The translations under genes and the position numbers were made by a program. Positions 34,171 to 63,408 of a DNA stretch of 64,000 nt are shown here, piece after piece. The DNA is from Lysobacteraceae bacterium (GTDB taxonomy: Bacteria > Pseudomonadota > Gammaproteobacteria > Xanthomonadales > Xanthomonadaceae). The first letter of the stretch is position 1. Each line of letters begins with the position of its first letter. Below the pieces are notes generated by a model. It was not told the DNA's origin. It did no database searches and was given only the letters and a program-made list of their open reading frames with translations. The stretch is taken from positions 345,451 to 409,450 of the forward strand of contig DASXKN010000029.1 of assembly GCA_036496805.1 (NCBI GenBank). Direction: 5' to 3'.

Positions 34171-35280
34171 ATGAAGCCTTCGACGACCGACCTGCTCGAC
34201 CAGTACGACCCGGCGCTTCCGCTGGAGGAAGCCTCGACGATTCCCGCTTCGTGGTACGTCGACCCGCGCGTGCTCGACCTCGAGAAGAAGACGACCTTCT
34301 CGCGCACCTGGCAGCTCGCCGCGCGCGCCGACCAGGTGCGCGAACCGGGCCGGTACGCCACCTGCGAGATCGCCGGCGAGCCGATCCTGGTCGTGCGCGG
34401 CGACGATGGCGTGCTGCGCGGTTTCTTCAACGTCTGCCGCCACCACGCCGCCGCCGTGATGACCGAACCGCAGGGCTGCGCGAAGAACCTGCGCTGCCCT
34501 TACCACGGCTGGACCTACACGCTCGAAGGCGCGCTCAAGGGCACGCCGAGCTTCCTCTCCGAATGCCACTTCGACCGTTCGGCGCACGGGCTGGCACCCG
34601 TTGCGATCCGCGAGTGGGAGAACTGGGTATTCGTGCGGCTCGATCGGGAAGGACCTTCCTTCGAGGAGGGTTTCGGATCACAGCTACTGAGTGACATCGC
34701 TTCCCTGGGACTCTCCCGCTTGGGTTGGCTCGAAAGGCGTCACTACTATTTCGACTGCAACTGGAAGGTCTTCGTCGACAACTACCTGGACGGCGGCTAC
34801 CACGTCCCGCATTTGCACAAGGGCCTGGACAGCGTGCTCGACTTCAAGAAGTACACGATCGAGAACGGCGCGCGGCATTGCCTGCAGTCCAGTCCGATCG
34901 TGAAGGACGGCGACCATGAGAAATTCTCTTCCGTGCGCGGCGGCGACCGCGCGTTGTACTACTGGGTGCATCCGAACTTCATGATCAACTGGTACGAAGG
35001 GGTCATGGATACGAACCTCGTACTGCCGCTGGGACTGGATCGCACCGAGGTGATCTTCGACTTCTGGTTCGCCGACGTCTCCGAAGCCGCGCGCGAGCGC
35101 AACAAGGCCAGCATCGAAGTCGGCCAGATAATCCAGGACGAGGACATGGCGATCTGCAAGTCCGTCCAGCGCGGCCTCAACTCGCGCGCCTACTCGACCG
35201 GCCGGCTGTCGGTGCGGCGCGAAGCGGGCGAGCATCTGTTCCATCGCCTGCTGCACGCCGACCTCTCGTCCGGCGCCTGA
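34171..35280 (+). CDS. Rieske [2Fe-2S] non-haem-iron oxygenase alpha subunit (aromatic-ring-hydroxylating/GbcA-NdmA-like)
   Basis: GGAG RBS 6 nt upstream of the ATG at 34171. Rieske motif CRHH...(17)...CPYHGW. Catalytic-domain motifs DNYLDGGYHVPHLH. Confidence 0.85.
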   Translation: MKPSTTDLLDQYDPALPLEEASTIPASWYVDPRVLDLEKKTTFSRTWQLAARADQVREPGRYATCEIAGEPILVVRGDDGVLRGFFNVCRHHAAAVMTEPQGCAKNLRCPYHGWTYTLEGALKGTPSFLSECHFDRSAHGLAPVAIREWENWVFVRLDREGPSFEEGFGSQLLSDIASLGLSRLGWLERRHYYFDCNWKVFVDNYLDGGYHVPHLHKGLDSVLDFKKYTIENGARHCLQSSPIVKDGDHEKFSSVRGGDRALYYWVHPNFMINWYEGVMDTNLVLPLGLDRTEVIFDFWFADVSEAARERNKASIEVGQIIQDEDMAICKSVQRGLNSRAYSTGRLSVRREAGEHLFHRLLHADLSSGA

Positions 35281-35284
35281 GCCG

Positions 35285-35992
35285 ATGCCGTCGTCGCACG
35301 CGTTCGCGCCGGGCGATACGCTGGTCGAGGCCATCGCTTCGCTGCGGGCATTCCACGGGCGGCCGCCATTGCTGCCGACGAGCGATCCTTTCGAACTGGT
35401 CCTGCTCGAGAACGTCGCCTACCTCGCCTCGGCTGCGCGCCGTCGCCAGGCTTTCGAGGTGCTCAGGCAGACCATCGGCACGACGCCGGAAGCGATCCTG
35501 GATGCGACACCGGAATCGCTGGAAGCGGTTGCCGCGCACGGGATCCTGAAGTCCCGCTTCGCGGACAAGTTGCGCCTATGCGCGCAGATCGCCATGGAGG
35601 TGTCGGGCGGCGACCTGGCCCAGGCGTTGCGGGGTCCGATCGAAAACGCGAGGCGCGTGCTGCGCAGGTTTCCCGGCATCGGCGTGCCGACCGCCGACAA
35701 GATCCTGTTGTTCTCCGGCCGGCTCGCGTGCCTGGCGCCGGAATCGAATGGCCTGCGTGTGCTGGCGCGACTGGGCTTCGTGGACGAGCGTCAGCCGTAC
35801 GCGCGCATGTACCGGACCAGCCTCGACCTGCAGCGCGCGTTGCCGGCGGAAGTCCCGGTCCTGCAGGAAGCGCACCTGCTGCTCCATCAGCACGGCCAGG
35901 TGCTCTGCAAGAATTCTTCGCCGCGTTGTGGCGAGTGCCCGTTGGCGGGCGGCTGCGCGCACGCGAGGCGGTCGTCGGCACGAGTGAGCTAG
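35285..35992 (+). CDS. EndoIII-like HhH-GPD family protein with [4Fe-4S] cluster loop
   Basis: ATG lies 4 nt after the Rieske stop. Exact Cx6Cx2Cx5C motif at the C-terminus (CKNSSPRCGECPLAGGC). HhH-GPD core. Confidence 0.7.
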   Translation: MPSSHAFAPGDTLVEAIASLRAFHGRPPLLPTSDPFELVLLENVAYLASAARRRQAFEVLRQTIGTTPEAILDATPESLEAVAAHGILKSRFADKLRLCAQIAMEVSGGDLAQALRGPIENARRVLRRFPGIGVPTADKILLFSGRLACLAPESNGLRVLARLGFVDERQPYARMYRTSLDLQRALPAEVPVLQEAHLLLHQHGQVLCKNSSPRCGECPLAGGCAHARRSSARVS

Positions 35993-36502: not shown

Positions 36503-37039
36503 TCAGAAGGGAATCGGGCCGGCAACGACCGGGCAGACGTGTGCCCAGCGTGTCCAGGGCGGCCCGAAGGGGCTGCCGAACACCTTCCACGCACTTCCTT
36601 CCTGTCGCAGGAGGACCTTGGCCACCAGGCGGATGTCACGCGCATCGCCCGTCATGCGCGCGCATCCGAAGACCGCGTAATCCGAACTGCCATTCGGGTT
36701 GACGTCTTCGGCTGCGGCCGTGATGAACAACGTCGAAGGTATGTTCTGCCGCGACATGTCGAACATCCCGCGTTCTTGCGCGGTCGTGAAAGGCTTCAGA
36801 TGGGGTTGCGGTGCGGGCGTGGGCTGCATCGCGAGCCATGCGTTGAAGTCGCCGGACTGCAACGCGTGCTGCCAGCGCAGGACGGCTGCGTGCATCGGCT
36901 TGTGGGGATCCAGTGTCTGGAGGACCGGAACGGGCGGGTTCGCCGGTGTGCCTGCGGCCATCGCGACCGATGCTGGCAGCAGGATGAAAAGAGTAAGTCG
37001 CCACAGCCCTCGCGGACGTGCCGCTCGATTCGTTTTCAT
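36503..37039 (-). CDS. secreted hypothetical protein (last gene of oxidoreductase operon)
   Basis: Signal peptide MKTNRAARPRGLWRLTLFILLPASVAMA. ATGA overlap with the upstream CrtI-like gene. Confidence 0.55.
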   Translation of the reverse strand: MKTNRAARPRGLWRLTLFILLPASVAMAAGTPANPPVPVLQTLDPHKPMHAAVLRWQHALQSGDFNAWLAMQPTPAPQPHLKPFTTAQERGMFDMSRQNIPSTLFITAAAEDVNPNGSSDYAVFGCARMTGDARDIRLVAKVLLRQEGSAWKVFGSPFGPPWTRWAHVCPVVAGPIPF

Positions 37040-38565
37040 TTTCCTGCTCCCAGCACCGCCTTCGCCGCGTTGCGCCCGCTCGCGCCGCTGATGCCGCCGC
37101 CACCGTGCACGCCGCTGCCGCACAGCCACAGGTTGTCGATCGGCGTGCGATGGTTGGACCAGCCCGGGATCGGGCGCATGAAGAAGAACTGGTCGAGGAT
37201 CAGCTGGCCGTGGTTGAGGTCGCCTTCGGTGAGGCCCCAGGTGGTTTCGAGGTCGGTCGGCAGGATCGATTCGATCTGGCGGATCGACTTCTTCAACGCG
37301 GGGAAGTGCCCGGACAGGGTGTCGACGGCGAGCTGCTCGACATGGCCGCGCTGGTCTTCCCACTTCGCGTTGCGCAGCGCGTACGGCGCGGACTGGAAGT
37401 GGACCGAGACGACGTTGCCGCTCGACGTGACTTCCACGTAGGGCGCTTGCGCGATCTCGCCGTACTTCGAAGCGTCGAAGGCGCGTTCGAGGTACTTCAG
37501 CGTCGGCGCGTGCGCGAGCGTGCCGGCGGGGATGCCATGGCTGCCGTCGGTGAGCAGATGCACCTTGGCGACGCTGCCGCGCATGCGGATCGATTGCGTG
37601 GCCCAGACGAATTCGGGCGGCAGCTCGACCGCGCCGACCAGGCCGAGGAAGGTGTGGCGCGGATCGGCAGCCGACAGCACGAGCTTCGCCGCGATTTCCT
37701 CGCCGCTGACCAGGCGCACGCCGGTCGCCTGCTGTTTCACCACGATGACTTTCTGCACGTCAGCGCCGGCGCGCACCTCGCCGCCGCGCGACTTCAGCGC
37801 CGCCACCAGCGCATCGGCGATGCGTGCGCTGCCGCCGGCGACCGCCGGATGCGCGAGGCCGCCGCGGTTGAGCCAGTTGTGCATCAGCGTGTAACCGGTG
37901 CCAGCCGACATCGAACCGAGGGTGAAGCCGTGGATGCCGACCGCCGCGATCGCGGCGCGCAACGGTTCGGACTCGAACCATTCCTCGGTCAGCTCGACCA
38001 TCGACATCGACATCGAGCGGATCAGCTTGAACATGTCATTGCCGCCGAGCCGGCGCAGCTTCCAGCCGAGCTGGGCGAGCGGCAGGCCTTCCTTGCGCAG
38101 GTCGACGTTCGGCAGGCGCGGCATCGGCGTGCGGTAGGCGGCGTCGATGAAGGCTGCGGCCTTGTCCATGAAGGCGACGAAGGCGGGCCACGTTTCCGCG
38201 TCCTTCGCCGACAACTCGCGGATCGATGCCAGCGTGGCCGCATCCTTGCCATCGGCGACCAGGTGCAGGCGCTTGCCGCCGGGCAGCAGCGCAACGTAGG
38301 GCGATTTCGCGCCGGATTGCTTGTCGAGGCCGAACTTCGCAAGGCCGAGGTCGGCGACGATGTCGGGCCGCAGCATGCCGCCCGCGTGCAGCGCATCGAC
38401 GGCGAAGCCTTCGCCGAAGGTCTCGCGCGCGAGCTGTCCGCCTGCGACGGCGCGGCGTTCGAGGACGAGCACTTTCTTCCCCGCCTTCGCGAGATAGTTC
38501 GCCGCGACCAGGCCGTTGTGGCCGGAGCCGATGATGAGGGCGTCATAAGTCATGGTCGCGCTCAT
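37036..38565 (-). CDS. FAD-dependent oxidoreductase, phytoene-desaturase (CrtI)/amine-oxidase family
   Basis: N-terminal dinucleotide-binding motif DALIIGSGHNGLVAANYLAKAGKKVLVLE. CrtI-like length and C-terminus. Confidence 0.8.
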   Translation of the reverse strand: MSATMTYDALIIGSGHNGLVAANYLAKAGKKVLVLERRAVAGGQLARETFGEGFAVDALHAGGMLRPDIVADLGLAKFGLDKQSGAKSPYVALLPGGKRLHLVADGKDAATLASIRELSAKDAETWPAFVAFMDKAAAFIDAAYRTPMPRLPNVDLRKEGLPLAQLGWKLRRLGGNDMFKLIRSMSMSMVELTEEWFESEPLRAAIAAVGIHGFTLGSMSAGTGYTLMHNWLNRGGLAHPAVAGGSARIADALVAALKSRGGEVRAGADVQKVIVVKQQATGVRLVSGEEIAAKLVLSAADPRHTFLGLVGAVELPPEFVWATQSIRMRGSVAKVHLLTDGSHGIPAGTLAHAPTLKYLERAFDASKYGEIAQAPYVEVTSSGNVVSVHFQSAPYALRNAKWEDQRGHVEQLAVDTLSGHFPALKKSIRQIESILPTDLETTWGLTEGDLNHGQLILDQFFFMRPIPGWSNHRTPIDNLWLCGSGVHGGGGISGASGRNAAKAVLGAGK

Positions 38566-40145
38566 TTCCAGTCCTTCAGCACTTCATGCGCCGCGAGCCT
38601 GCCGGCCGCGCCCATCACGCCGCCGCCCGGATGCGCGCCGGCCGCGCCGAAATAGTAGCCCGGCAACGGTGTGCGGAAGTCGGCCCATTGCGGCGCCGGC
38701 CGCAGGAAGAACAACTGGTGCAGCAGCAGTTCGCCGTGGAAGATGTTGCCGCCGGTGATGCCCGCGATGCGCTCGATGTCCTTCGGCGTGATGACCTGCT
38801 TGCCGACGATGCACTGGCGGATGTTCGGCGCGTATTTCTCGATCGTCGAGATCACCGTCTCGCCGAAGGCCTCGGTTTTCGCGGCGTCCCAACCGCCTTC
38901 GATGTCGTAGGGCGCGTACTGCACGAAACAGGACATCACGTGGTGCCCCGGCGGCGCCATGTCGCGGTCGATCATCGAAGGGATGATCATGTCGATGTAC
39001 GGGTTCTTCGAATACTGCCCGTACTTGGCTTCGTCGTAGGCGCGTTCGATGTAGTCCATGCTCGGGCTGATCGAGATCGCGCCGCGGTGCAGCGGGCCTT
39101 CGCCGGGCAGGCAGGTGAAGTCGGGCAGGGCATTGAGCGCGATGTTGACCTTGCCCGAGGAACCGCGCACGCGGAAGTTGCGGATCGCGGTGACGAACTC
39201 GTCGGGGAAGTGCCTGGGTTCCACGAACTGCAGGAAGCTGCGCTTCGGGTCGGCGCAGGCCATCACCACTTTCGCGCGCAGCTCGTCGCCATTCTCCAGC
39301 GCCACGCCGGCGGCGCGGCCGCCCTTGACGATGACCTGCTTGACAGGCGCGGAGGTGCGGATCTCCACGCCCAGCGCCGCCGCCGAACGCGCGATCGCCG
39401 CGCTGACGCCGCCGGTGCCGTTCTTCGCGAATCCCCACGCGCGGAAGGCGCCGTCGATCTCGCCCATGTAATGGTGCAGTAGCACGTAGGCGGTGCCGGG
39501 CGAGCGCGGCCCGAGGAAGGTGCCGATGATGCCGCTCGCGGATTTCGTGCCTTTCAGCGGATCGAACTCGAACCACTCGTCGAGCAGGTCGGCCGAGGAT
39601 TGCGTCACCAGCTTGGCGATGCGGTAGAGGTCTTTTTCGGACAGGCTTTTCGCGTACTGGCCGAGCTTGAGCAGGCCGATCAGGTCGCGCGGACTCATCG
39701 AGGACGGATCGGGAGGCACCAGGCCGATGACCGGCTTGATTGCCTTCGCCGCGCGCGCCATCACCCGGCCGTATTCGTCGGAAGCCTCGGCGTCCTTCGG
39801 CGAATGGCGATACAACTCCTGGCGCGTGAGGTCGTGGTCGTCCCAGGCGGCGAGGTAGTCGCCGTTGTCCATCGGCGTGACCGTGCTCGGCAGCGGCAGG
39901 ATCTTCAGCCCGTGTCGCGGCAGCTCGAGGTCGCGGATGATCTCCGGGCGCAGCAGGCTCACGACGTAGGAGAACTCGGTGAAGCGGTAGCCGGGGAAGA
40001 TTTCCTCGGTCATCGCCGCGCCGCCGACGATCTCGCGGCGTTCGAGGATGCACACCTTCTTGCCCGCGCGCGAAAGGTACGCCGCGGCGATCAGGCCGTT
40101 GTGGCCTGCGCCGATGACGATGGCGTCGTACTGGTTGGTGCTCAT
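38562..40145 (-). CDS. FAD-dependent oxidoreductase, CrtI/amine-oxidase family (tandem paralogue)
   Basis: Motif DAIVIGAGHNGLIAAAYLSRAGKKVCILE. ATGA overlap with the downstream paralogue. Confidence 0.8.
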   Translation of the reverse strand: MSTNQYDAIVIGAGHNGLIAAAYLSRAGKKVCILERREIVGGAAMTEEIFPGYRFTEFSYVVSLLRPEIIRDLELPRHGLKILPLPSTVTPMDNGDYLAAWDDHDLTRQELYRHSPKDAEASDEYGRVMARAAKAIKPVIGLVPPDPSSMSPRDLIGLLKLGQYAKSLSEKDLYRIAKLVTQSSADLLDEWFEFDPLKGTKSASGIIGTFLGPRSPGTAYVLLHHYMGEIDGAFRAWGFAKNGTGGVSAAIARSAAALGVEIRTSAPVKQVIVKGGRAAGVALENGDELRAKVVMACADPKRSFLQFVEPRHFPDEFVTAIRNFRVRGSSGKVNIALNALPDFTCLPGEGPLHRGAISISPSMDYIERAYDEAKYGQYSKNPYIDMIIPSMIDRDMAPPGHHVMSCFVQYAPYDIEGGWDAAKTEAFGETVISTIEKYAPNIRQCIVGKQVITPKDIERIAGITGGNIFHGELLLHQLFFLRPAPQWADFRTPLPGYYFGAAGAHPGGGVMGAAGRLAAHEVLKDWK

Positions 40146-40251
40146 GCCGCTGGTTTCCTAGTGCGCTGCCAGTATTGCTTGCTGTCGTAGCCCGGATGTA
40201 ATCCGGGTCGCCATGCCGATCCCGGATTGGCATCCGGGCTACGGTCGGAAA

Positions 40252-41448
40252 TCATTTCTTCTTCCACTCCGGCTCGTAGAACGGCAGCTTCACCACCTTG
40301 CACGCCGCCTGCTTGCGATGGTGCTCGACCGTGACCTCGATCGTCAGCTTCGTGCCCGGCTCGAAGTGCGGACGCTGCACATGCGCGAGCGCGATGTACT
40401 TCTTCAGCACCGGCGACCACGAACTCGTCGAGGCGTAGCCGATCTGGCGGCCGTCGCGCATCACCGGCAGGCTGCCGCGCACGGCCATGCCGGGGATCTG
40501 CGGCGGCAGGCCGACCGCGCCGAAGTGCTTTTCCAGGCTTTCCCATTCGATGTCGAGGCCGACCAGCTTCCACGCCGAGCCGTCCTTCTTTTCTTTTTCC
40601 AGCGCGCGGCGACCGACGAAGTAGCCTTCCTTGTCGAGCGCCACCGCCCAGTCCAGGCCCATCTCGAACGGGGTGGATTTCTGGCCTTCGATCCACGCGT
40701 GATTTGCCGGCGTGTAGTCGACGTCGACCATGAACAGGCCGGCCTCGACGCGCGCCATGTCCATCGGCAGGATGCCGCAAGGGGTGATCGAGTAGTCGTG
40801 GCCGGCCGCCATCAGCGCGTCCCAGACCTTCAGGCCCTTGTCGGCGTCCATCCAGATTTCGTAACCCATGTCGCCGGTGTAGCCGGTGCGCGAGATCGAC
40901 ACCGGAACGCCGGCGAGCGTGTTCTGCATCGCGCGGAAGTACTTGAGCTTGTCCAGCGACTTCTTGCAGCAGGCGTTGAGGATGGTGCGCGACTTCGGGC
41001 CCTGCAGGCTCAGCGCGCCCATCTGGTCGGTGACTTCACGGATCGTCACGTCCATGCCGACCGCATTCATCGACAGCCAGCGCAGCGAGGGTTCAGCCGA
41101 GGTCATGCGGAAGCTGGTTTCGCCCAGGCGCGTGACCGTGCCGTCGTCGAGCATCTTGCCTTCCTCGTCGCACCAGCCGGTGTAGAAGACCTGTCCGACC
41201 GCCATCTTCAGCACGTCGCGCGTGGTCACGCGATGCAGCAGCAGCGCCGCGTCGGGGCCGTCGATCAGGTACTTCATCAGCGGCGAGACGTCGATCAGCG
41301 CGGCGGCATCGCGGATCGCCCAGTACTCGCGATCGAGCGAAAGGTCGTAGGAGCCGACCACGATGTATCCGGCCCAGCGCCGCCAGTTCTGCGGGAGGCA
41401 CAGTTTGCTCGTGCGTTCGTGGAAAGGTGTGCGCTTGAGTTCGAGCAT
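40252..41448 (-). CDS. GcvT-family aminomethyltransferase (folate-binding; DmdA/sarcosine-type demethylase-like)
   Basis: GcvT_N/GcvT_C-like sequence (ALIDVSPLMKY...GYTGDMGYEIW...). ATG at 41446-41448. Confidence 0.8.
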   Translation of the reverse strand: MLELKRTPFHERTSKLCLPQNWRRWAGYIVVGSYDLSLDREYWAIRDAAALIDVSPLMKYLIDGPDAALLLHRVTTRDVLKMAVGQVFYTGWCDEEGKMLDDGTVTRLGETSFRMTSAEPSLRWLSMNAVGMDVTIREVTDQMGALSLQGPKSRTILNACCKKSLDKLKYFRAMQNTLAGVPVSISRTGYTGDMGYEIWMDADKGLKVWDALMAAGHDYSITPCGILPMDMARVEAGLFMVDVDYTPANHAWIEGQKSTPFEMGLDWAVALDKEGYFVGRRALEKEKKDGSAWKLVGLDIEWESLEKHFGAVGLPPQIPGMAVRGSLPVMRDGRQIGYASTSSWSPVLKKYIALAHVQRPHFEPGTKLTIEVTVEHHRKQAACKVVKLPFYEPEWKKK

Positions 41449-41563
41449 GGAGTGTTCCGTTGCGCTCCCCGCGGGCGCGGAAACGGCCAATTATAGGCGT
41501 TTCGACTCGCTCGCCGCGAGCGCAAGTGCGTTGTGTTGCGTGTGCGGATACCGGACGATTCGC

Positions 41564-42928
41564 TCAGGGGTGTCCGGCGCCTGGAGGTGAAGCGTCGTGA
41601 CACCTCGCCGTGCCGGGCCCGCATTCGAGTGCGCCTTGCTTGACTACGCCCTGCACATGCTCGAGCAGGCGGATGTCCGCGAGCGGATCGCCGGCGACGG
41701 CGACCATGTCGGCCGATTTGCCCGGCGCGATCGAGCCCAGTTCCTTTTCCTTGCGCAGCAGCTTCGCCGCTTCGATCGTGCTCGCCTGGATCGCCTGCAG
41801 CGGCGTCATCCCGTACTTCACCATGTAGGCGAACTGGCGCGCGTTGTCGCCGTGCGGGTAGACGCCCGCGTCGGTGCCGAAGGCGATGTGGACACCGGCC
41901 TTCACCGCCTTGCGGAAACCCTCGCGCTGGGTCTCGGTCGTCTCGGTGTTCTTGCGCAGGGTGTCGGCGGGCCAGCCCTGCGCGCGGCCGACGGTGTCGA
42001 TGTAGTCGCCGTTGTAGATGTCGGCGACCAGCCAGGTGCCGTGCTGCACCATCAGGGCGATGCCTTCGTCGTCGATCAGCGAACCGTGCTCGACCGATCG
42101 CACGCCGGCGCGGACCGCGTTCTTGATGCCCTCGGCGCCGTGCGCGTGCGCGGCCACGAAGGTGCCGTGCCTTGCGGCCTCCTCCACGGCGGCATGGATT
42201 TCGGCCTCGGTGAATTCGGACTTGCCCGGTTCGGTGCCCGGCGTGAGCACGGCGCCGGTCGCGATCACCTTGATGAAGTCGGCGCCGTGGTCGAGCAGGT
42301 AGTCCACGTTCGTGCGCACTTCGCTTTCCGACGCCGAGACGCCGCGGCGGAATTCCGGCGGCACGATCGTGCCGGACGGCAGACCGGTGACCTCGCCGCC
42401 GCCCCCGGGAATCGTGATGTAGGCGCCCGCGCAGAACATGCGCGGACCCGGCACATAGCCCTTGGCGATCGCGTCGCGCAGCGCGACATCGCCGAGCGCG
42501 CGATAGGTGCCGACATCGCGCACGGTGGTGAATCCTGCATACAGGGTGTCGCGCGCATGGCTCGCGCCGAGCAGCACGTCGTCCTGCGCGCTCATCTTCA
42601 GCGGGGCGAGCGGATCGTTGGTTTCGAGATCGCCGATCAGGTGGGTGTGCATGTCCATCAGGCCGGGCAGCACGGTGTACGCGCTCCAGTCGATCACGCG
42701 CGTGCCACCGACGTTCGCCGCATTCCATGGCGCGACCGCCACCACGCGCCCGTTCTCGATGCGCACGGCCTGGTCGGCGAGCATCCTGCCAGCGTCGACA
42801 TCGAGCAGATGGCCGGCATGGACGATTACGGCATCGGCGCAGCGCCCGTCGGGGCTGAAGCCCAGCAAGGCGACGCAAGCCATCGCCGTGGCCAACGTCG
42901 GCCACTTCACATGGGAACCTGCTTTCAT
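41564..42928 (-). CDS. secreted metal-dependent amidohydrolase
   Basis: AAGGAG RBS. Signal peptide. Metal ligands LMDMHTHL...HAHG...FGTDAG. Confidence 0.8.
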   Translation of the reverse strand: MKAGSHVKWPTLATAMACVALLGFSPDGRCADAVIVHAGHLLDVDAGRMLADQAVRIENGRVVAVAPWNAANVGGTRVIDWSAYTVLPGLMDMHTHLIGDLETNDPLAPLKMSAQDDVLLGASHARDTLYAGFTTVRDVGTYRALGDVALRDAIAKGYVPGPRMFCAGAYITIPGGGGEVTGLPSGTIVPPEFRRGVSASESEVRTNVDYLLDHGADFIKVIATGAVLTPGTEPGKSEFTEAEIHAAVEEAARHGTFVAAHAHGAEGIKNAVRAGVRSVEHGSLIDDEGIALMVQHGTWLVADIYNGDYIDTVGRAQGWPADTLRKNTETTETQREGFRKAVKAGVHIAFGTDAGVYPHGDNARQFAYMVKYGMTPLQAIQASTIEAAKLLRKEKELGSIAPGKSADMVAVAGDPLADIRLLEHVQGVVKQGALECGPGTARCHDASPPGAGHP

Positions 42929-43974
42929 GCTTCCGCTCCTTGATGGGCATACGCTGTGCGCAGCAGGTTCTGGAAATGCCAGACCCCGCTCTCGCGTTTC
43001 GGGCACAGGCGCCCGGCTTCGTAGAACCCCGAAGCGAGGCCTTTCTGCACGGCCTCGCAGATCGCCACGTCCTCGTGCTGGATCTCGTCGCTGAACATCG
43101 CGTCCATCGCGATGCGCGCCTGCGCCTTCGGGTCCTGCGCGTAGTAGTAGTCGAACTCGACGCGGCAGCGCCCGGGGCCGAGCGGCAGCACGCGGTTGGT
43201 CTGCAGGCGGCCGGGCATGACGTTGAGCATGATGTTCGGGTAGACGTGGTAGTAGAACGCCTCGCCGTCGCCATAGATGCCGTCGCTGTCGCGCAACGGC
43301 GAGGACTGCAGCGAATACCAGTCGGACAGTTCGGTGTCGTAGGCGCGGTAGTCGAGCACCTTCGACAGGCCCGGATGCACGTGCGGCAAGTGGTAGCCCT
43401 CGAGGAAGTTGTCGACGTAGACCTTCCAGTTGCATTCGACCTCGTAGGCGTCGCGGCGCTGGTAGCGCATCGTCGACAGGTCGATCGGCGCGATCCGTCC
43501 GGCGATGCCGGCATAGACTTCCGCGAACGGCGGCACGTCGTCGCTCAGGGCGACGAAGACCAGGCCCTGCCATTCGTGCACGCGCAATGCCGGCAGGTGG
43601 ATGTCGCCGACCTTGAAGTCGCCTGCATCCTGCATCTCCGGCGCGCTGCGAAGCTGGCCGTCGAGCCTGTACGTCCAGCCGTGGTACTTGCAGTGCAGGG
43701 CGCGCGCGCCCTTGCCGTTGCAGAACGCGAGCGGACCCGCACGGTGGCGGCAGACGTTCGGGAACGCCCGCAGCACGCCGTCCTGTCCACGCACGAGGAG
43801 CACCGGCGTGCCGGCGATGTTCTCGACGACGTGGTCGCCGGCTTCCGCAAGCAGCCCCTGGTGCGCGACGAGCTGCCAGCTCCGTGCGAATACCGCGCGG
43901 TTTTCCATCGCCAGCATGTCGTCGCCGAAGTAGTACTTCGCATGCAGGGCGCGGGCGTGGCGCAGGTCGTCCAT
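42925..43974 (-). CDS. Rieske [2Fe-2S] non-haem-iron oxygenase alpha subunit (paralogue of 34171..35280)
   Basis: GGAGG RBS. Rieske motif CRHRAGPLAFCNGKGARALHCKYHGW. Motif DNFLEGYHLPHVH. ATGA overlap with the downstream amidohydrolase. Confidence 0.85.
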   Translation of the reverse strand: MDDLRHARALHAKYYFGDDMLAMENRAVFARSWQLVAHQGLLAEAGDHVVENIAGTPVLLVRGQDGVLRAFPNVCRHRAGPLAFCNGKGARALHCKYHGWTYRLDGQLRSAPEMQDAGDFKVGDIHLPALRVHEWQGLVFVALSDDVPPFAEVYAGIAGRIAPIDLSTMRYQRRDAYEVECNWKVYVDNFLEGYHLPHVHPGLSKVLDYRAYDTELSDWYSLQSSPLRDSDGIYGDGEAFYYHVYPNIMLNVMPGRLQTNRVLPLGPGRCRVEFDYYYAQDPKAQARIAMDAMFSDEIQHEDVAICEAVQKGLASGFYEAGRLCPKRESGVWHFQNLLRTAYAHQGAEA

Positions 43975-44106
43975 CGCGTTCCTCCAGTGCCGGATCCCCC
44001 ACGATCCGACCCACATGGTCGCACACCGCGCCGACGACGTATTGAAGGTCTCCATGCCGGGAAACAAACTAGACTGGCTTGCCGATATTCAAGCCCGCCG
44101 CACGCC

Positions 44107-47100
44107 ATGAGCGATCACATCCATACCACGCAGTGGCGGCGGCTCGGCGAGCTGTTCGAACAGGCCATCGACCTGGACGCAGCAGGACGGGCGGAGCTGC
44201 TGCTCTCGGTCGAACGGGAGGACGCCGAGCTCGGCCAGGTCCTTGCTTCCCTGCTCGACGCGGACGCCAGACACCATGGCCAGACGGCCGCGCACCGTGA
44301 GCGGGTATTGCAGGATTCCTTCCATGCCATCTATGGCGAAGACCTCACGGTAGGCGATCGTGTCGGCCAGTACGTGCTGCGGGAAAGCCTGGGACACGGC
44401 GGCATGGGCGTGGTGTTCCGCGCCGAGCGCGCGGACGGCCAGGTCCGGCAGGACGTGGCGCTCAAGGTCGTCAAGCTCGGGATGGACACGCGCGAGGTGA
44501 TCGCGCGCTTCGAGGTCGAGCGCCAGGCGCTGGCGCTGATGGAGCATCCGCACATCGCGCGCATGCTCGATGCCGGGACGACCGACAGCGGCAGGCCCTA
44601 CTTCGTGATGGAGCTGGTCAAGGGCGAGCCGATCTGGCGCTACTGCATCGTGAACGGCCTGACGATCGACCAGCGCCTGCGCCTGTTCGAGCAGGTATGC
44701 GCCGCCGTGCAGCACGCGCACACCAAGGGCATCATCCACCGCGACCTCAAGCCGACCAACGTGCTGGTGAGCACGCAGGAGGGCCAGCCGTTCGCGAAGG
44801 TGATCGATTTCGGCATCGCGAAGGCGACCAGCGGGCGCCTGACCGAAAAGACGCTGATGACCCAGCAGTTCCTGATGATGGGAACGCCGTTGTACATGAG
44901 TCCGGAGCAGGCCGCTGGCAGTGCGGACATCGACACGCGATCCGACATCTACGCGCTCGGCGCCATCCTCTACGAGCTGCTGACCAATACCACGCCGATC
45001 GACTCGGACTCGTTGCAGGACGCGGCCCACGAGGAAGTCCAGCGCATCATCCGGGAAGTCGATCCACCGCGGCCGAGCGCGCGCCTTTCGCAGTCCACCA
45101 CGACCAGGCCCGGAACGGTGACGGAACAAGGCGTCGATGTCCGCGCGCTGGCGAAGGCGGTTCGCGGCGAGCTCGACTGGATCGTGATGAAGGCGCTGGA
45201 GAAGGACCGCTCGCGGCGCTACGAGACCGCGAGCGCGCTGGCCATGGACGTGCGTCGGTACCTGGAGGGCGAGGCGGTCCAGGCGGCGCCTCCGGGCGCG
45301 GCCTACCGGCTGCGCAAATGGATCCGGCGCAACCGCGCGACCTTTGCCGCGGGATCGATGGTCGCCGTCGCGCTGCTGGTCGGCATCGTGGCGTTCGCGT
45401 GGCAGGCGCGGATCGCGCAGCAGCAGGCGCGGCTGGCACGGCAGCGCGCACACGAAGTGGAGCAGGTGGCCACGTTCGAAGGCGACATGCTCAGGCAGGT
45501 GGATCCGAACAAGGCCGGCAGGGATCTCGTGGACGACCTGAAGTCCAAGCTCGCCGCGGCCCTGGTCAAGGCAGGCGTGCCCGAAAAGGAACGATCGGCA
45601 CAGGCCGCTGCGTTTGCCGGCCTGCTGCGGTGGGTGAATGCCACCGACACCGCGGTCGGCGTGATCGACCGGACGACCATGAAGCCCGCGATCGCCGCCA
45701 TCGACCAGCGGTTCAAGGACCAGCCGGTCGTGGCCGCGAGATTGCGCCAGGTGCTGGCGGACCGCTACGTGCAGATGGGCCTCTACGATGCGGCGATGCC
45801 ATTGATGAAAAGCGCGCTGGCGACGCGCCGTCGCGTCCTGGGCGAGGAGGATCGGGAGACGCTGCAATCGCTCGGGAACATCGGCGCCCTGGCCGAGTCC
45901 ATGGAAAATCAGAAGGAGGCAGAACCCTACCTGCGCGAGGCGCTCGCGAAACGCCGCCGCATCCTGGGTGAGGACGATCCGGACACGGTGGAGTCCATGG
46001 GGGACCTCGGCCAGCACCTGACGACCGAGGGCCAGCTGAAAGAGGCCGAGCCGCTCCTGCGCCAGGCCCTGGCGACCAGTCGGCGCGTGAACGGGCAGGG
46101 CAGCGCCGAAACCGTGGAACTGATCGCTTCAATGGGCTATGTCCTGAATGAGGAAGGCAGGATGGCCGAGGCCGAACGCTATCTGCGCGAGGCGATCGCG
46201 AAGAACGATCGTGCCGTTGGCGGAGATCCGGCCAAGAGGCTCGACCTGATCGACAACATGGGGTGGACCCTCTGGCAACAGGGCAAGATCGCCGAGGCCG
46301 AGGCGTTCCAGCGCGGGTCGCTGGAACGAAGTCGCCGTTCGGTCGGCGAGGACCACCCACTGACGGTGGACAAGGTCTACAGCCTGGCCGGAATCCTGAT
46401 GGCTGAGGGCAAGCTGGGCGAGGCGGAAGGGTATATGCGGGAGTCCCTGGAAAAACGTCGCAGGATCTTCGGCGAGGGGCACCCTTTCGCGCTGATGACG
46501 AGGGTGAGGCTGGGCACGCTCCTCGACGAGGAAGGAAAGCCGGGCGAGGCCGAGGCCAGCCTGCGCATGGCGCTGGACGGGTGCCGCCGCGCGTTCGGAG
46601 ACCATGCGGGACCCACGGTGTATACGATCGCCGTGCTGGGCGGCTTCCTGCGGGACAACGGCAGGATGGTCGAGGCCGAGTCCTATTTGCGGAAGGCGCT
46701 GGACGACAGCCGTCGTGCATTCGGCTCCGACAGCGAGGTCACGTTGTATGCGATGGCGCAAATGGGACAGATGCTCGTTGCACAAGGCAAGTTTGCCGAG
46801 GCTGAAAAACTGCTCGCTCCGCTTGAAGCCCGGGCGCGCGGAGCGGTATTCAATGGCGACATGGAGTCGATGACGCCGGCGATGACGAGCCTGGGGATGG
46901 CCCGCACCGGGCTGGGTGAATTCGCTGCCGCCGAAACCGACCTGCTCGAAGCGCAACCACGACTGACCGTGGACCTGGGCCCGAAGGCAAGGGTCACCCG
47001 CCGGTGTACCCAGGCCCTGGGCGACCTTTACGCGGCCTGGAATGCGGCACATCCGGGCGAGGGCCATGACACGCAGTCGGCCGCGTGGAAGCGGAAGCTC

Positions 47101-47139
47101 GATGCCTTGGGTGCTCCGGTGTCCGTTGTGAAGCACTGA
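44107..47139 (+). CDS. Ser/Thr protein kinase with single TM helix and long C-terminal TPR-repeat domain (1010 aa)
   Basis: Hanks-kinase motifs LGHGGMGVV, VALK, HRDLKPTN, DFG, SPE. TM helix AAGSMVAVALLVGIVAFAW. At least 9 TPR-like repeats (...AEPxLREAL...). Confidence 0.85.
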   Translation: MSDHIHTTQWRRLGELFEQAIDLDAAGRAELLLSVEREDAELGQVLASLLDADARHHGQTAAHRERVLQDSFHAIYGEDLTVGDRVGQYVLRESLGHGGMGVVFRAERADGQVRQDVALKVVKLGMDTREVIARFEVERQALALMEHPHIARMLDAGTTDSGRPYFVMELVKGEPIWRYCIVNGLTIDQRLRLFEQVCAAVQHAHTKGIIHRDLKPTNVLVSTQEGQPFAKVIDFGIAKATSGRLTEKTLMTQQFLMMGTPLYMSPEQAAGSADIDTRSDIYALGAILYELLTNTTPIDSDSLQDAAHEEVQRIIREVDPPRPSARLSQSTTTRPGTVTEQGVDVRALAKAVRGELDWIVMKALEKDRSRRYETASALAMDVRRYLEGEAVQAAPPGAAYRLRKWIRRNRATFAAGSMVAVALLVGIVAFAWQARIAQQQARLARQRAHEVEQVATFEGDMLRQVDPNKAGRDLVDDLKSKLAAALVKAGVPEKERSAQAAAFAGLLRWVNATDTAVGVIDRTTMKPAIAAIDQRFKDQPVVAARLRQVLADRYVQMGLYDAAMPLMKSALATRRRVLGEEDRETLQSLGNIGALAESMENQKEAEPYLREALAKRRRILGEDDPDTVESMGDLGQHLTTEGQLKEAEPLLRQALATSRRVNGQGSAETVELIASMGYVLNEEGRMAEAERYLREAIAKNDRAVGGDPAKRLDLIDNMGWTLWQQGKIAEAEAFQRGSLERSRRSVGEDHPLTVDKVYSLAGILMAEGKLGEAEGYMRESLEKRRRIFGEGHPFALMTRVRLGTLLDEEGKPGEAEASLRMALDGCRRAFGDHAGPTVYTIAVLGGFLRDNGRMVEAESYLRKALDDSRRAFGSDSEVTLYAMAQMGQMLVAQGKFAEAEKLLAPLEARARGAVFNGDMESMTPAMTSLGMARTGLGEFAAAETDLLEAQPRLTVDLGPKARVTRRCTQALGDLYAAWNAAHPGEGHDTQSAAWKRKLDALGAPVSVVKH

Positions 47140-47231
47140 GGAACGCGCCACCGGGCTGAGGGAGTCGGCGCGCCCGGTTGGCAGCAGATGGGATAGGGTG
47201 TGGCCGTTCGCTCCAGCAGCCGGGAGAAGCC

Positions 47232-48533
47232 GTGTCGAGGACGTTTCTGGTCGTTGCCTTGTGCGTGATGACGGGGCTTGCGCCGGTGTGCGGCGCTGGC
47301 GCCGTGTCGCCAACAGCTCCGATGGCCGTCATGGCGACGGCTTCCTCCGCCGCCGCCGCCGCTGCGAGAGCGTCCGCATCGCCGCCGCGCGCCCGCGACC
47401 TCGGCATCCCGTTCGAGGGCACGCCCGGTCCGCTCAACGCGATCACCGACGTGCAGGGCGTCGCCGTCGGCCAGGTCACCCTGATCGAAGACCTCAAGGA
47501 TGGCCACAAGGTCCGCACCGGCGTCACCGCGATCCTGCCGCGTGGCCATGACACCTGGGACCTGCCGGTCTTCGCCGGCTGGTTCTCGCAAAACGGCAAC
47601 GGCGAGATGACCGGCACCCACTGGATCGACGAGGGCGGCGAGCTCGAAGGGCCGGTGATGCTGACCAACACCCACAGCGTCGGTCTCGTGCGCGACGCCG
47701 TCATCGCCGAGCGGGTGAAGGCCGGCCATCCGGATGCGACCGGCTACTGGTGGTCGCTGCCGGTCGTCGCCGAAACCTGGGATGGCGACCTCAACGACGC
47801 CAATGGCTTCCACGTCAGGCCCGAACACGTCGCCAAGGCATTGACCGATGCGAACGGCGGCCCGGTCGCCGAAGGCAATGTCGGCGGCGGTACCGGCATG
47901 ATCTGCCACGAGTTCAAGTGCGGCATCGGCACGTCGTCGCGAAAGGTCAACGAATCCGGCCACGACTACACCGTCGGCGTGCTGGTGCAGGCCAACTACG
48001 GCGTGCGCGATCCGCTGCGCATCGCCGGCGTGCCGGTCGGGCAGTACCTGCGCGACGACCGCGTGTTCACCGATCCGAAGCTGTGGGGCAGCGGGACTGC
48101 CGCCGCGCCCACGCGCGCACGATTGCCGGACGGCATCGCCCACGAAACCGGCTCGATCATCGTCGTGGTCGCCACCGACGCACCGCTGCTGCCGCACCAG
48201 CTCAAGCGCGTGGCGCGCCGCGCGACGCTCGCGCTGGGACGGATGGGCAGCTATTCGGGCAACGGTTCGGGCGACCTGTTCGTCGCGTTCTCCACCGCCA
48301 ACCGCGATGCGATGAACGACAAGGCGCAGCAGTCCGCCACCTTCGTCGGCAACGACCACATCGACCCGGTGTTCGAGGCCACCGTGCAGGCGACCGAGGA
48401 AGCCATCGTCAACGCGATGATCGCCGCGAAGGACATGCAGGGCGACAGCGGGCACTACGCGAAGGCGATCCCGCACGACCGTCTCGTCGCATTGCTGAAG
48501 CAATTCAACCGCTGGCAGCCGCCATCGAAGTGA
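47232..48533 (+). CDS. secreted P1/S58-family peptidase (DmpA-like L-aminopeptidase/D-esterase), GTG start
   Basis: GGGAGA RBS upstream of the GTG at 47232. Signal peptide. DmpA/OAT-type fold sequence with the autoprocessing G|S region (GTGMICHEF...GIGTSS). Confidence 0.7.
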   Translation: MSRTFLVVALCVMTGLAPVCGAGAVSPTAPMAVMATASSAAAAAARASASPPRARDLGIPFEGTPGPLNAITDVQGVAVGQVTLIEDLKDGHKVRTGVTAILPRGHDTWDLPVFAGWFSQNGNGEMTGTHWIDEGGELEGPVMLTNTHSVGLVRDAVIAERVKAGHPDATGYWWSLPVVAETWDGDLNDANGFHVRPEHVAKALTDANGGPVAEGNVGGGTGMICHEFKCGIGTSSRKVNESGHDYTVGVLVQANYGVRDPLRIAGVPVGQYLRDDRVFTDPKLWGSGTAAAPTRARLPDGIAHETGSIIVVVATDAPLLPHQLKRVARRATLALGRMGSYSGNGSGDLFVAFSTANRDAMNDKAQQSATFVGNDHIDPVFEATVQATEEAIVNAMIAAKDMQGDSGHYAKAIPHDRLVALLKQFNRWQPPSK

Positions 48534-48775
48534 ACCGCGCGGCGACCGGGGCCGGACGAGCGGAATTCCGTGATTCGCGTCACGTTTCCGGCGGCGATGC
48601 CATGCGGGAATCACCTTGTCCGCGCCGGAACGACGCTTCCTTCCCTCGCATCCTCGATGCGGAGCCGGTCGCCCTCTTGAGGCGCGATGTTTCGGGCGTC
48701 TTCGCGACACCATCGCGCCCGGTGTTGGGTTAGGCTTCGGATACGGCGACGACGAGACGGCGACGACACGACGAC

Positions 48776-50026
48776 ATGGAAGCCACGCCTTACGAAACGA
48801 GGATCGCGATCGCCGGGCTGGATCTGAAGATGTACGTTTCGCGCCTGGACCGGCCGTGGATCGAGAGCCCGTTCCTGCTCGAAGGCCTGCTGGTGGAGAC
48901 CCAGGAGGACCTCGAGAAGCTGCAGAAGCTGTGCCGCCACGTCTACATCGACGTCACCCGCGGCGCCAGCCCCGACAGGCGCTACGTCGAGCCCGAAGAG
49001 CCCGTGGCGGCGGAGAAGTCCGTTCCGTTCGCCGCCGAATTCGCCGCGCTGAACACCACGACCTGGCAGATCGCGACCCGCGTCGAGGTCGAGCTCCCGG
49101 TCGCTGCGAAGGCGCAGCACCACCTCGAGCGCGGCATCGAGCAGATGATGACCGACCTGCACGATGGTCGCGAGCTCGACCTGCTCAGCGTCCGCGAGGG
49201 CGTGGGCGCGATGATCGACTCGGTCACCCGCAACCCCTCGGCCTTCACCTGGCTCAAGGCGATCCGCAAGAAGAGCAGCTACACCTACCAGCACGCGCTG
49301 GGCAGCTCGGTGTGGGCGGCGAGCTTCGGCCGCCACCTCGGCCTGAACCGCCAGGAGATCGACGACCTGGCCTTCGCGGGCCTGATGTTCGACGTGGGCA
49401 AGGCCAGCCTGTCGGTCGAGCTGCTCGACAAGACCGGGTCCTACGACGACGAGGACTGGCGGCAGATGCGCGCGCACGTGCAGGCGGGCGTCGAGATCCT
49501 CGAACGCACGCCCGGGGTATCCCAACGCACCATCCAGGCGGTCGCCACCCACCACGAGCGCCACGACGGATCCGGTTATCCGCGTGGCCTGCGCGGCGCG
49601 CAGATCCCGATCTTCGGCCGCCTCATCGGCCTGATCGACAGCTACGATGCGATGACCAGCGCGCGCCCGTATGCACCGGGCCGCACCGCGCACCAGGCGG
49701 TGATGGAGCTGTACAACGTGCGCGACATCCTGTTCCAGTCCGACCTCGTCGAGCAGTTCATCCAGACCTGCGGCGTGTACCCGCCCGGTTCGCTGGTGGA
49801 ACTGTCCGACGGCCGCGTGGGCGTGGTGACCGCCGTGCACGACCTCAAGCGCCTGCGCCCGAACGTCATGCTGCTGCTCGACGCGATCAAGCAGCCGCTG
49901 CCCGAATTCGTCGCGGTCGACCTGAGCCAGGTCGCGAACGACGACAAGGGCAAGCCGCTCACCATCCGGCGCGGGCTGCCCGAGCGCGCGTTCGGCATCG
50001 ATCCGGCCGAACTGTTCATCAACTGA
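48776..50026 (+). CDS. HD-GYP domain c-di-GMP phosphodiesterase with DUF3391-like N-terminal domain
   Basis: Motif HHERHDGSGYPRG (HD...GYP). Confidence 0.85.
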   Translation: MEATPYETRIAIAGLDLKMYVSRLDRPWIESPFLLEGLLVETQEDLEKLQKLCRHVYIDVTRGASPDRRYVEPEEPVAAEKSVPFAAEFAALNTTTWQIATRVEVELPVAAKAQHHLERGIEQMMTDLHDGRELDLLSVREGVGAMIDSVTRNPSAFTWLKAIRKKSSYTYQHALGSSVWAASFGRHLGLNRQEIDDLAFAGLMFDVGKASLSVELLDKTGSYDDEDWRQMRAHVQAGVEILERTPGVSQRTIQAVATHHERHDGSGYPRGLRGAQIPIFGRLIGLIDSYDAMTSARPYAPGRTAHQAVMELYNVRDILFQSDLVEQFIQTCGVYPPGSLVELSDGRVGVVTAVHDLKRLRPNVMLLLDAIKQPLPEFVAVDLSQVANDDKGKPLTIRRGLPERAFGIDPAELFIN

Positions 50027-50035
50027 CCCTGCCGC

Positions 50036-51322: not shown

Positions 51323-51516
51323 GGCGGGCAAGGCAATCCGCCGGACCCGCCTGCCCGATGGTGGTCCTTCCGCGCGCGCTTCCGCAAGTCCGCAGCCATC
51401 TTCAGGCTTGCTGCCACCGTGGCGGCATGCGATTCCCGGCAACGCAGCGTTCCGGCAGCAGTGGGCGTGTGCAGGCCCGGCGCGTGACATGCTCGATCCA
51501 CTCAAGGAGGACATCC

Positions 51517-57994: not shown

Positions 57995-58015
57995 GGGTGC
58001 ACCTCCGCTGCTTTT

Positions 58016-58104
58016 GACGTCATCCCCGCGAAGGCGGGGATCCACGTGCGCAGGAAGCCAGCGTGGATGACGTGGGTGGATCCCCGCCTTCGCGGGGATG
58101 ACGT
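58016..58104. repeat. REP/SMAG-like nested palindromic element
   Basis: Two perfect inverted arms (58017-58045 and 58075-58103), spacer 29 bp. Each arm contains the inner palindrome CCCCGCGAAGGCGGGG. Confidence 0.7.
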
Positions 58105-58138
58105 GCAGGAGCCGAAGTGGGTGGCGGACACGGTGGCC

Positions 58139-60926: not shown

Positions 60927-60978
60927 GCGGCCTCCTCGCGCAGCCCGGCGGGGAAGCCTGCGAAAGAAAGCATCGCGA

Positions 60979-63392: not shown

Positions 63393-63408
63393 CGTCACGG
63401 ACCTCGGA

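Follow-up and report, generated by a model that had tools for sequence, protein, structure and literature searches.

A conserved gene trio encoding a GcvT-like protein and two PYROXD2-family flavoproteins: a candidate tetrahydrofolate-linked oxidative N-demethylase

A 64,000-nucleotide (nt) stretch of contig DASXKN010000029.1 from a Lysobacteraceae bacterium (positions 345,451 to 409,450 of the forward strand; the whole stretch is called the window in the following) raises the question of which reaction is catalysed by two tandem flavoproteins that are encoded next to a GcvT-like protein and a Rieske oxygenase. The genes lie on the minus strand between 36503 and 43974 and are numbered g1 to g6 in the direction of transcription. 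A first-pass annotation, made from the sequence alone, had described them as a seven-gene operon for N-demethylation or amine catabolism. All six open reading frames (ORFs) listed there are present with the boundaries that it gave, each starting with ATG, but the title was a miscount: six genes had been listed and six were found. The overall amine logic held and gained much support, as an uncharacterised amine or N-methyl system combining a quaternary-amine Rieske protein, a GcvT-like one-carbon (C1) acceptor and flavin enzymes; the six-gene unit did not. From homology, gene context and human association data we propose that g3, g4 and g5 probably encode a tetrahydrofolate (THF)-linked oxidative N-demethylase whose flavoproteins belong to the family of human PYROXD2.

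Both g4 (38562-40145, minus strand, 527 amino acids) and g5 (37036-38565, minus strand, 509 amino acids) are flavoproteins of the flavin adenine dinucleotide (FAD) type and matched the Pfam families Amino_oxidase / NAD_binding_8; the DAO match spanned only the N-terminal Rossmann motif. BLASTP with human PYROXD2 (NP_116098.2 / Q8N2H3, confirmed by exact-sequence look-up) aligned g4 over its full length (residues 5-527) with 41% identity (405 bits, E 5e-140), which far exceeds its similarity to CrtI/CrtO or to amine oxidases and places it in the PYROXD2 family. The divergent paralogue g5 was 32% identical to PYROXD2 and 33% to g4. A HMMER search of the full library with g4 yielded 21,152 clusters with E values under 1e-3, and 2,688 clusters at the 50%-identity level had E values under 1e-30. 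With these, 8000 scored matches to g4 and at least 120 clusters at an identity of 83% or higher, the module is abundant. The clusters closest to g4 at the 50%-identity level include those of animal PYROXD2, with the oyster cluster P0171 at about the 17th place. When the 150 nearest representatives were compared, 36 scored higher to PYROXD2 than to g4, several scored equally to both and none was closest to g5. These scores place g4 and PYROXD2 in one subfamily.

The flavoproteins had been called CrtI-like in the first-pass annotation, a name that holds for the fold and is too coarse for the family. The best NCBIfam match of g4 was the CrtO ketolase, far under its cut-off, and the best match in the PDB was CrtI (4e-11, 45 bits), so that g4 has no close solved structure. 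A carotenoid enzyme of the CrtI/CrtO type was rejected for g4 (TIGR02734, 91 bits against a cut-off of 238; NF045689, 266 against 1000; no crt context) as well as for g5 (84 and 197 bits, both under the cut-off). An AlphaFold2 model of g4, which was built from 25 sequences, mostly more than 83% identical, reached a mean predicted local distance difference test (pLDDT) score of 65 and was used for the fold class only; it was nearest to CrtD/CrtI, followed by NicA2, putrescine oxidase, 6-hydroxynicotine oxidase and monoamine oxidase.

The gene upstream of g4, g3 (40252-41448, minus strand), encodes a stand-alone GcvT-like protein of 398 amino acids. Its THF-binding fold is indicated by two Pfam domains, GCV_T (4e-58, 197 bits) and GCV_T_C (5e-14, 52 bits), both of which pass the gathering cut-offs of about 26. 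The best NCBIfam match was the C-terminal THF domain of trimethylamine N-oxide (TMAO) demethylase (298 bits) and the best PDB match was the structure of that domain (9q5a, 5e-59), followed by GcvT, the alpha subunit of sarcosine oxidase, dimethylglycine oxidase and DmdA. A true T protein of the glycine cleavage system was rejected, the scores being below the equivalog cut-offs (TIGR00528, 179.6 vs 235.85; PRK00389, 227.2 vs 300). We propose from these matches that g3 may be the C1 acceptor of the module, for which DmmD, a stand-alone GcvT-like partner of a demethylase, sets a precedent (PMC5520151).

Which of the six genes belong together was asked of 80 genome loci that were fetched with g4 from contigs of one genome per species, and onto which the proteins of the window were mapped. 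The host range comprised Lysobacterales, Steroidobacteraceae-like Gammaproteobacteria and Alphaproteobacteria (Hyphomonadaceae, Micropepsaceae, Terricaulis and Caulobacteraceae). In 72 of the 73 loci that were informative, having enough sequence, g3 was located directly upstream of g4, and g5 followed g4 in all 66 loci that were informative for it. The complete order g1-g2-g3-g4-g5 was found again in a single locus out of 80 (L003). Therefore, only g3-g4-g5 is a conserved unit and the six genes are not one conserved operon; the Rieske and amidohydrolase genes vary from locus to locus as accessories, and so do an APC permease and the peptidases S58 and S9. Identity to the copies of the window was 84-96% for g4 (86-96% without locus L075), 70-91% for g3 and 59-83% for g5. 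A value of 84-96% between Gamma- and Alphaproteobacteria is unusually high for an enzyme of 527 amino acids. The unequal conservation of g4 and g5 suggests a strong constraint on g4, a recent horizontal spread, or both.

The neighbours that recur around the trio are a g2-type amidohydrolase, S58/DmpA and S9 peptidases, a TolB-propeller/CehA-type hydrolase, a gamma-glutamyltransferase, a class-III aminotransferase and an APC permease of the basic-amino-acid/polyamine antiporter family. The S58 peptidase recurs in Lysobacter genomes; its orthologues, at 67-75% identity, were separated from the trio by 3-6 kb in 16 of the 80 loci. The S9, TolB/CehA and class-III aminotransferase genes (families 3, 7 and 23 of the neighbourhood clustering) adjoin the module in Lysobacter genomes, and in Alphaproteobacteria a gene of the S9 prolyl-oligopeptidase family precedes g3. 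In about eight loci the gene directly upstream of the GcvT-like gene encodes, by sequence inspection, GTP cyclohydrolase I (FolE). A Rieske homologue was found at a distance of up to 10 kb in 25 of the 52 loci with long flanks, all 25 of them gammaproteobacterial, in one of two places: immediately before g3, or beyond g5 in convergent orientation.

Beyond close relatives, 80 metagenome loci with 44-89% identity, many of them on short contigs, were retrieved by means of an alignment of 49 diverse family members. A GcvT-like gene was encoded within the fetched flanks of 48 of these, and two flavoprotein genes together with a GcvT-like gene occurred in at least three orders: GcvT, FAD and FAD protein in the same direction; GcvT divergent from the FAD-FAD pair, often followed by PurU; and putrescine aminotransferase, FAD, FAD and GcvT, followed either by two Rieske genes or by acyl-CoA synthetase and aldehyde dehydrogenase. 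Since the linkage to GcvT is kept through rearranged gene orders, it points to functional coupling and not to inherited synteny. Some members consist of one flavoprotein and GcvT, others stand alone (at least 9 of 80 without GcvT). The formyl-THF deformylase PurU was recognised in five loci (NCBIfam, 411 bits) and the putrescine aminotransferase scored 619 bits against a cut-off of 612; further neighbours assigned by NCBIfam were the transporter components PotF and PotH, a BetI-like regulator, a PuuC/BADH-like aldehyde dehydrogenase and APC permeases. Carotenoid or isoprenoid (crt) genes were not found in the neighbourhoods of either the genome or the metagenome loci.

The Rieske proteins bear on the substrate. 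In addition to g1 (42925-43974, minus strand, 349 amino acids; Pfam Rieske and Ring_hydroxyl_A), which encodes the alpha subunit of a Rieske non-haem-iron oxygenase, the window contains a second, choline-monooxygenase-like Rieske gene at 34171-35280 on the plus strand (369 amino acids), convergent with the cluster and absent from the gene list of the first-pass annotation. The two proteins are 40% identical to each other and have the carnitine monooxygenase CntA as best PDB match (8e-44 for g1, 2e-38 for the second protein). The ligands of the Rieske [2Fe-2S] centre, CxH...CxxH, are present in g1 (CRHRAGPLAFCNGKGARALHCKYH) and in the second protein (CRHHAAAVMTEPQGCAKNLRCPYH). In an alignment to CntA (6y8j), DNF-L-E-GYH-LPHV-H of g1 corresponds to Y203/E205/H208/H213 and the D of HEDV to D323, and D-GGYH-VPHL-H and DED of the second protein correspond to E205, H208, H213 and D323 (residue numbers from PMC7948474); both proteins thus keep the His-His-Asp iron triad and the bridging carboxylate. 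The motif NWKVFVDNYLDGGYHVPHLH of the second protein resembles plant choline monooxygenase. Tyr203 of CntA makes a pi-cation contact with the trimethylammonium group and is an aromatic residue in group Va (CntA, choline monooxygenase, OxyBAC), whose members hydroxylate or cleave beside a quaternary nitrogen, but Asn in the demethylating group Vb (GbcA/BmoA, Stc2) (PMC7948474). At this position g1 has Phe and the second protein Tyr (motif DNYLDGGYHVPHLH), and the full-length Rieske neighbours in the genome loci comprise 22 with Tyr, 4 with Phe and about 7 with GNYLECYHC. Judged by these residues, both proteins are of the group V quaternary-ammonium type with a Va and not a Vb (GbcA/Stc2) signature, which departs from the GbcA/NdmA-type demethylase that had been suggested for g1. 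The best NCBIfam match of both proteins was GbcA, with the Rieske domain only and far under the cut-off (130 bits vs 670). Orthologues of the second protein (67-88% identical) adjoin the trio in many gammaproteobacterial loci. A third Rieske type of about 440 amino acids, whose motif GNYLECYHC includes a CntA-like cysteine pair, is encoded directly between the APC permease and the GcvT-like gene in L013, L023, L024, L027, L034, L080 and L081.

A mechanism that would accommodate these parts starts with a flavoprotein that would oxidise the N-methyl group of a tertiary or secondary amine to the iminium, upon which the GcvT-like protein would hand the C1 unit to THF as 5,10-methylene-THF without release of free formaldehyde. 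In this scheme g4 is proposed to be the catalytic amine dehydrogenase/oxidase subunit; g4 and g5 would form a heteromer or act in successive steps, from tertiary to secondary and then from secondary to primary amine. The group-Va Rieske proteins (g1 and the paralogue at 34171-35280) would attack the substrate while it is a quaternary trimethylammonium compound, a form that no flavin can oxidise, and the periplasmic Cc2672-type carboxypeptidase g2, together with the nearby S58 and S9 peptidases, would free the substrate from peptides. We infer N-methylated cationic amines as the substrate class and favour as candidates methylated basic amino acids or diamines (e.g. N-epsilon-methyl-lysines), to which the transporters, the Arg/Lys-specific carboxypeptidase, the peptidases and the aminotransferases point, or trimethylamine released by the Rieske protein, a route kept open by the Va signature and the Tdm-like g3.

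This second route is a sub-case of the proposed N-demethylase and deserves to be set out on its own, although we regard it as unlikely. A CntA-like Rieske protein would cleave carnitine, gamma-butyrobetaine, a choline-like compound or trimethyllysine to trimethylamine, g4 and g5 would be trimethylamine and dimethylamine dehydrogenases, and g3 would capture the methyl groups as methylene-THF. The best-known Va member indeed releases trimethylamine, the nearest match of g3 is the THF domain of TMAO demethylase, two flavoproteins fit two demethylation steps, and expression of PYROXD2 is inverse to urinary trimethylamine and linked to plasma dimethylamine (PMC3169529). Yet the monomethylamine pathway genes gmaS, mgs and mgd were not recognised among the recurrent neighbour families, most singleton ORFs carrying no annotation; the peptidases, the basic-amino-acid/polyamine transporters and the putrescine aminotransferase suggest larger amines with a second amino group; and the alphaproteobacterial loci do without the Rieske gene.

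Less likely still is a glycine betaine route, which we consider improbable. Here the cluster would be a non-homologous stand-in for GbcAB, DgcAB and SoxBDAG, with the Rieske protein forming dimethylglycine and g4/g5/g3 leading on via sarcosine to glycine. The GbcA match of both Rieske proteins, the BetI-like regulators and BADH-like aldehyde dehydrogenase in distant loci, and the combination of FAD and GcvT domains in dimethylglycine and sarcosine oxidases would agree with it, but the Rieske signature is Va and lacks the Asn of Vb, the recurrent families include polyamine/basic-amino-acid transporters and peptidases instead of a BCCT/OpuA betaine transporter, and the associations of PYROXD2 are not with dimethylglycine or sarcosine (PMC5780481, PMC7878905). 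That no demethylation takes place at all, g4 and g5 being either polyamine oxidases that cut internal C-N bonds or enzymes of the CrtI type (desaturases, isomerases or ketolases) with a lipid or isoprenoid as substrate, with the GcvT-like gene as an unrelated or regulatory neighbour and the six genes as two or three transcription units, would suit CrtD and CrtI as closest solved folds, CrtO as best NCBIfam match, the gaps of 115 and 106 nt with a strong hairpin between g3 and g4 and the single family members without GcvT, but is equally improbable in view of the CrtO and crtI_fam scores (266 vs 1000, 91 vs 238), the missing carotenoid or isoprenoid genes, the GcvT linkage in three gene orders, the PurU and FolE neighbours, the protist fusions described below and a human genetics that implicates N-methyl amines (PMC3169529, PMC5780481, PMC7878905); the associations with PurU, FolE, GcvT and GFA in particular are hard to reconcile with a non-demethylating role.

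Several observations weigh against the THF-linked N-demethylase that we prefer. The support for the module comes wholly from homology, gene context and human association data. The closest solved structures of the flavoproteins are carotenoid desaturases and not amine oxidases, and the g4 model is of moderate confidence only (pLDDT 65). The g5-type copies lack the motif PSxxDPxxAPxG through an 11-residue deletion in 44 of 44 orthologous pairs, whereas the g4-type copies always have it. As this motif is lost, g5, which retains GxGxxG, could have become specialised or have no catalytic role; further away in the family, PSxxDPxxAPxG is retained by about 58% of the second copies of tandem pairs. 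The sole exception to the g3-g4 linkage, L002 (metagenome-assembled genome SZAS-103), has g4 and g5 without a GcvT-like gene upstream, although its g4 is 96% identical to that of the window. In the alphaproteobacterial loci no Rieske gene was found within 10 kb. Characterised Va enzymes release trimethylamine or hydroxylate and do not demethylate, so that it is uncertain how the Rieske step connects to those of the flavoproteins. A Rieske reductase was not found near the module in 160 related loci by motif searches on crude gene calls from length and G+C content at third codon positions (GC3), which small ferredoxins could escape. Whether GFA domains are catalytic is, finally, a matter of dispute.

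Can the bacterial context tell something about the human protein? PYROXD2 is a mitochondrial flavoprotein with a mitochondrial N-terminal extension, whose biochemical function is described as unknown and for which neither a partner nor an activity is known (PMC8777681); a reaction of any family member was not found described in the searchable literature either, subscription-only papers being outside the search. Its signal in metabolite genome-wide association studies is among the strongest and most replicated, the locus has a signature of recent positive selection, and biallelic variants have been reported in a severe infantile mitochondrial disorder (PMC3169529, PMC8777681). Urinary trimethylamine is higher when PYROXD2 expression is lower, and plasma dimethylamine is under the control of the same locus (PMC3169529). 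N-methylpipecolate is associated with the missense variant M461T (PMC5780481), and both N6,N6-dimethyllysine and its N2-acetyl form with the locus (PMC7878905, PMC13352909). All of these compounds are N-methyl amines, mostly tertiary, and this is the pattern that loss of a demethylase would produce. Met461 (M461T, rs2147896) aligns to Ala411 of g4 (at about 38913-38915 of the window), the variable position of a conserved Q-[YF]-x-P-Y motif. Homologues often have Thr in this place, so that M461T looks like a mild substitution.

A second kind of C1 partner was found in protists. The protein P0203, of 816 amino acids and with 49% identity to human PYROXD2, has at its N-terminus a domain of the Pfam family GFA (glutathione-dependent formaldehyde-activating), and in a search with it a fusion of GFA to a PYROXD2-type flavoprotein was present in 21 of the top 120 clusters (P0203, P0337-P0346, P0349, P0351, P0353, P0354, P0356, P0360, P0368, P0372, P0374 and P0434); the domain was re-confirmed in three. 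They come from protists, including transcriptome sequences (EukProt, MMETSP) and Perkinsus proteins named PYROXD2. Since several are from transcriptomes, they are not artefacts of gene models. With a GcvT neighbour in bacteria and a GFA fusion in protists, this flavoprotein family is joined to a C1-handling partner twice and by different means. It is therefore conceivable, though we put it forward only tentatively and with less confidence than the bacterial module itself, that the PYROXD2 family as a whole, the human protein included, provides the catalytic subunits of an ancient, hitherto unrecognised class of N-demethylases for tertiary and secondary amines that passes the formaldehyde equivalent to a C1 partner, GcvT-like or, in protists, a fused GFA domain. 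If this is true, it would explain the links of PYROXD2 to trimethylamine, dimethylamine, N6,N6-dimethyllysine and N-methylpipecolate, and PYROXD2 might be the gene for the old orphan activity epsilon-alkyllysinase (N6-methyl-lysine oxidase). On this more speculative view, the reductase-less Rieske protein of the cluster could in addition draw its electrons from the flavoproteins, which would give a self-contained pathway from quaternary to primary amine. The bacterial context in any case gives PYROXD2 a concrete, testable reaction class, oxidative N-demethylation with C1 capture, for which the pairing with a GcvT-like protein, the PurU and FolE neighbours and the quaternary-amine Rieske proteins argue and with which the GFA fusions of protists agree.

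How does the module compare with known systems? The first-pass annotation knew of no characterised pathway that matched the two flavoproteins and the amidohydrolase; here, too, no characterised operon of such content was found in Pfam, NCBIfam, the PDB or the literature searched as above, nor was a system of GcvT and a phytoene-dehydrogenase-like protein described in that literature, again with subscription-only papers outside the search. Flavin-dependent N-methyl oxidation with transfer of the C1 unit to THF via a GcvT fold, as proposed here, is carried out by dimethylglycine oxidase/dehydrogenase, sarcosine dehydrogenase and the heterotetrameric sarcosine oxidase, whose THF domains g3 matches at 1e-29 to 1e-32. 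In these systems the GcvT domain shares a polypeptide or a complex with a flavin domain of the DAO family; unlike them, the cluster encodes no such flavin domain but two flavoproteins of PYROXD2/CrtI fold, with the GcvT-like protein as a separate polypeptide. PurU is linked to sox operons, and sox-type operons share this link with relatives of the module. In DmmDABC, the stand-alone GcvT-like, THF-binding DmmD is encoded together with the demethylase, and its presumed role is to trap the formaldehyde set free (PMC5520151). In the TMAO demethylase Tdm it is the THF domain that is the best match of g3. The catalytic components of DmmDABC and Tdm, a haem/PAS-type oxidative demethylase and a DUF1989 Zn/Fe enzyme, are unrelated to g4/g5, and we know of no PYROXD2-family protein in either system. 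With CntA, g1 and the second Rieske protein share the Cys/His ligands, bridging carboxylate, triad and aromatic residue at Tyr203, but identity is low (about 150 bits) and both are without the cysteine pair of CntA; moreover, CntA and GbcA systems have a CntB/GbcB-type reductase, none of which adjoins the module. CrtI, CrtD and CrtO have the same overall fold as the flavoproteins, but the scores are far under the cut-offs and the context is one of C1/folate and amine genes instead. Some bacterial clusters are equally close to g4 and to human PYROXD2, which are 41% identical to each other. Flavin amine oxidation coupled to a folate domain of GcvT fold is thus known; new would be the different flavoprotein family and the separate subunits. 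If the proposal is true, the module would add a missing route of methylated-amine turnover in soil and water bacteria.

The accessory gene g2 (41564-42928, minus strand, 454 amino acids; Pfam Amidohydro_1) passes the equivalog cut-off of the Caulobacter cog1228 dipeptidase (NF051886, 532 bits vs 500) and matches the L-arginine carboxypeptidase Cc2672 (3mtw) at 2.7e-100 over residues 35-435. Its first 34 residues, which are missing from the crystallised homologues, are by inspection hydrophobic and signal-peptide-like. By its likeness to the L-Arg/Lys carboxypeptidases Cc2672 and Sgx9359b (cog1228), g2 is a predicted periplasmic Cc2672-type Arg/Lys carboxypeptidase / Xaa-Pro dipeptidase; it was found together with the core only in Lysobacterales loci. 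The last ORF, g6 (36503-37039, minus strand, 178 amino acids), had been taken for a secreted DUF protein of the operon. It has a signal-peptide-like N-terminus, but no Pfam or NCBIfam match, and tblastn gave no match better than E=1.4 in 80 related loci, including those with a g4 that is 96% identical. This orphan ORF is probably not part of the system and may be no gene at all or a lineage-specific one of recent origin.

The arrangement of the cluster is as the first-pass annotation had it, with three 4-nt ATGA overlaps (g1/g2 at 42925-42928, g4/g5 at 38562-38565, g5/g6 at 37036-37039) and gaps of 115 nt between g2 and g3 and 106 nt between g3 and g4. GC3 amounts to 0.87-0.91 in g1-g5, typical of real genes in a window with 67% G+C, vs 0.75 in g6. 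The G+C content is 65-71% across the whole window, without a compositional island at the cluster. A simple consensus scan of the cluster revealed no internal promoter or terminator beyond shuffle expectation, so that co-transcription is plausible, and no consensus sigma-70 site was found in the divergent intergenic region between g1 and a kinase gene (43975-44106), the presumed promoter region of the cluster. The spacer between g3 and g4 (folding energy -49 kcal/mol) contains a hairpin at 40187-40242 (minus strand) that resembles repetitive extragenic palindromic (REP) elements and has a perfect 12-nt inverted repeat, GTAGCCCGGATG, both arms of which occur nowhere else in the window; an intrinsic terminator was ruled out, no T-run following it. 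In relatives the distance between g3 and g4 ranges from 0 to about 860 nt, which makes the junction a likely hot spot of insertions. In the database annotation, the proteins found by exact-sequence look-up, HEY2346747-49, are named no further than "NAD(P)/FAD-dependent oxidoreductase" and "aminomethyltransferase family protein".

No Rieske beta subunit was found near g1. In agreement with the first-pass annotation, a six-frame motif scan of the window, which was not exhaustive, yielded neither an FNR-type reductase nor a plant-type ferredoxin in any frame that is credibly coding. Four nt after the second Rieske gene follows an ORF of 235 amino acids without family match (35285-35992). Divergent from g1, a Ser/Thr kinase with TPR repeats (44107-47139, plus strand) is followed by the S58/DmpA-family aminopeptidase (47178-48533, plus strand; Pfam Peptidase_S58, 2e-116) and by an HD-GYP-like and a GGDEF-EAL ORF (48776-50026 and 50036-51322), the regulatory genes being identified by eye; together with a zinc alcohol-dehydrogenase-like ORF they make up the block 44107-52569. 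This block of kinase, S58 and cyclic-di-GMP genes stands between the cluster and the genes of an S9 peptidase, a TolB-propeller/CehA-type metallohydrolase and a class-III aminotransferase (53382-59464, minus strand; Pfam and NCBIfam); the S58, S9, TolB/CehA and aminotransferase genes of the window are located 3-16 kb upstream of the cluster. For the aminotransferase, CoA-transferase and aldehyde dehydrogenase genes at 58139-63945, NCBIfam gave generic family names only and no link to lysine or polyamines. Those encoding two CoA-transferase subunits, an aldehyde dehydrogenase resembling pyrroline-5-carboxylate dehydrogenase and a second class-III aminotransferase (60141-63945, minus strand) could form a catabolic set for omega-amino acids.

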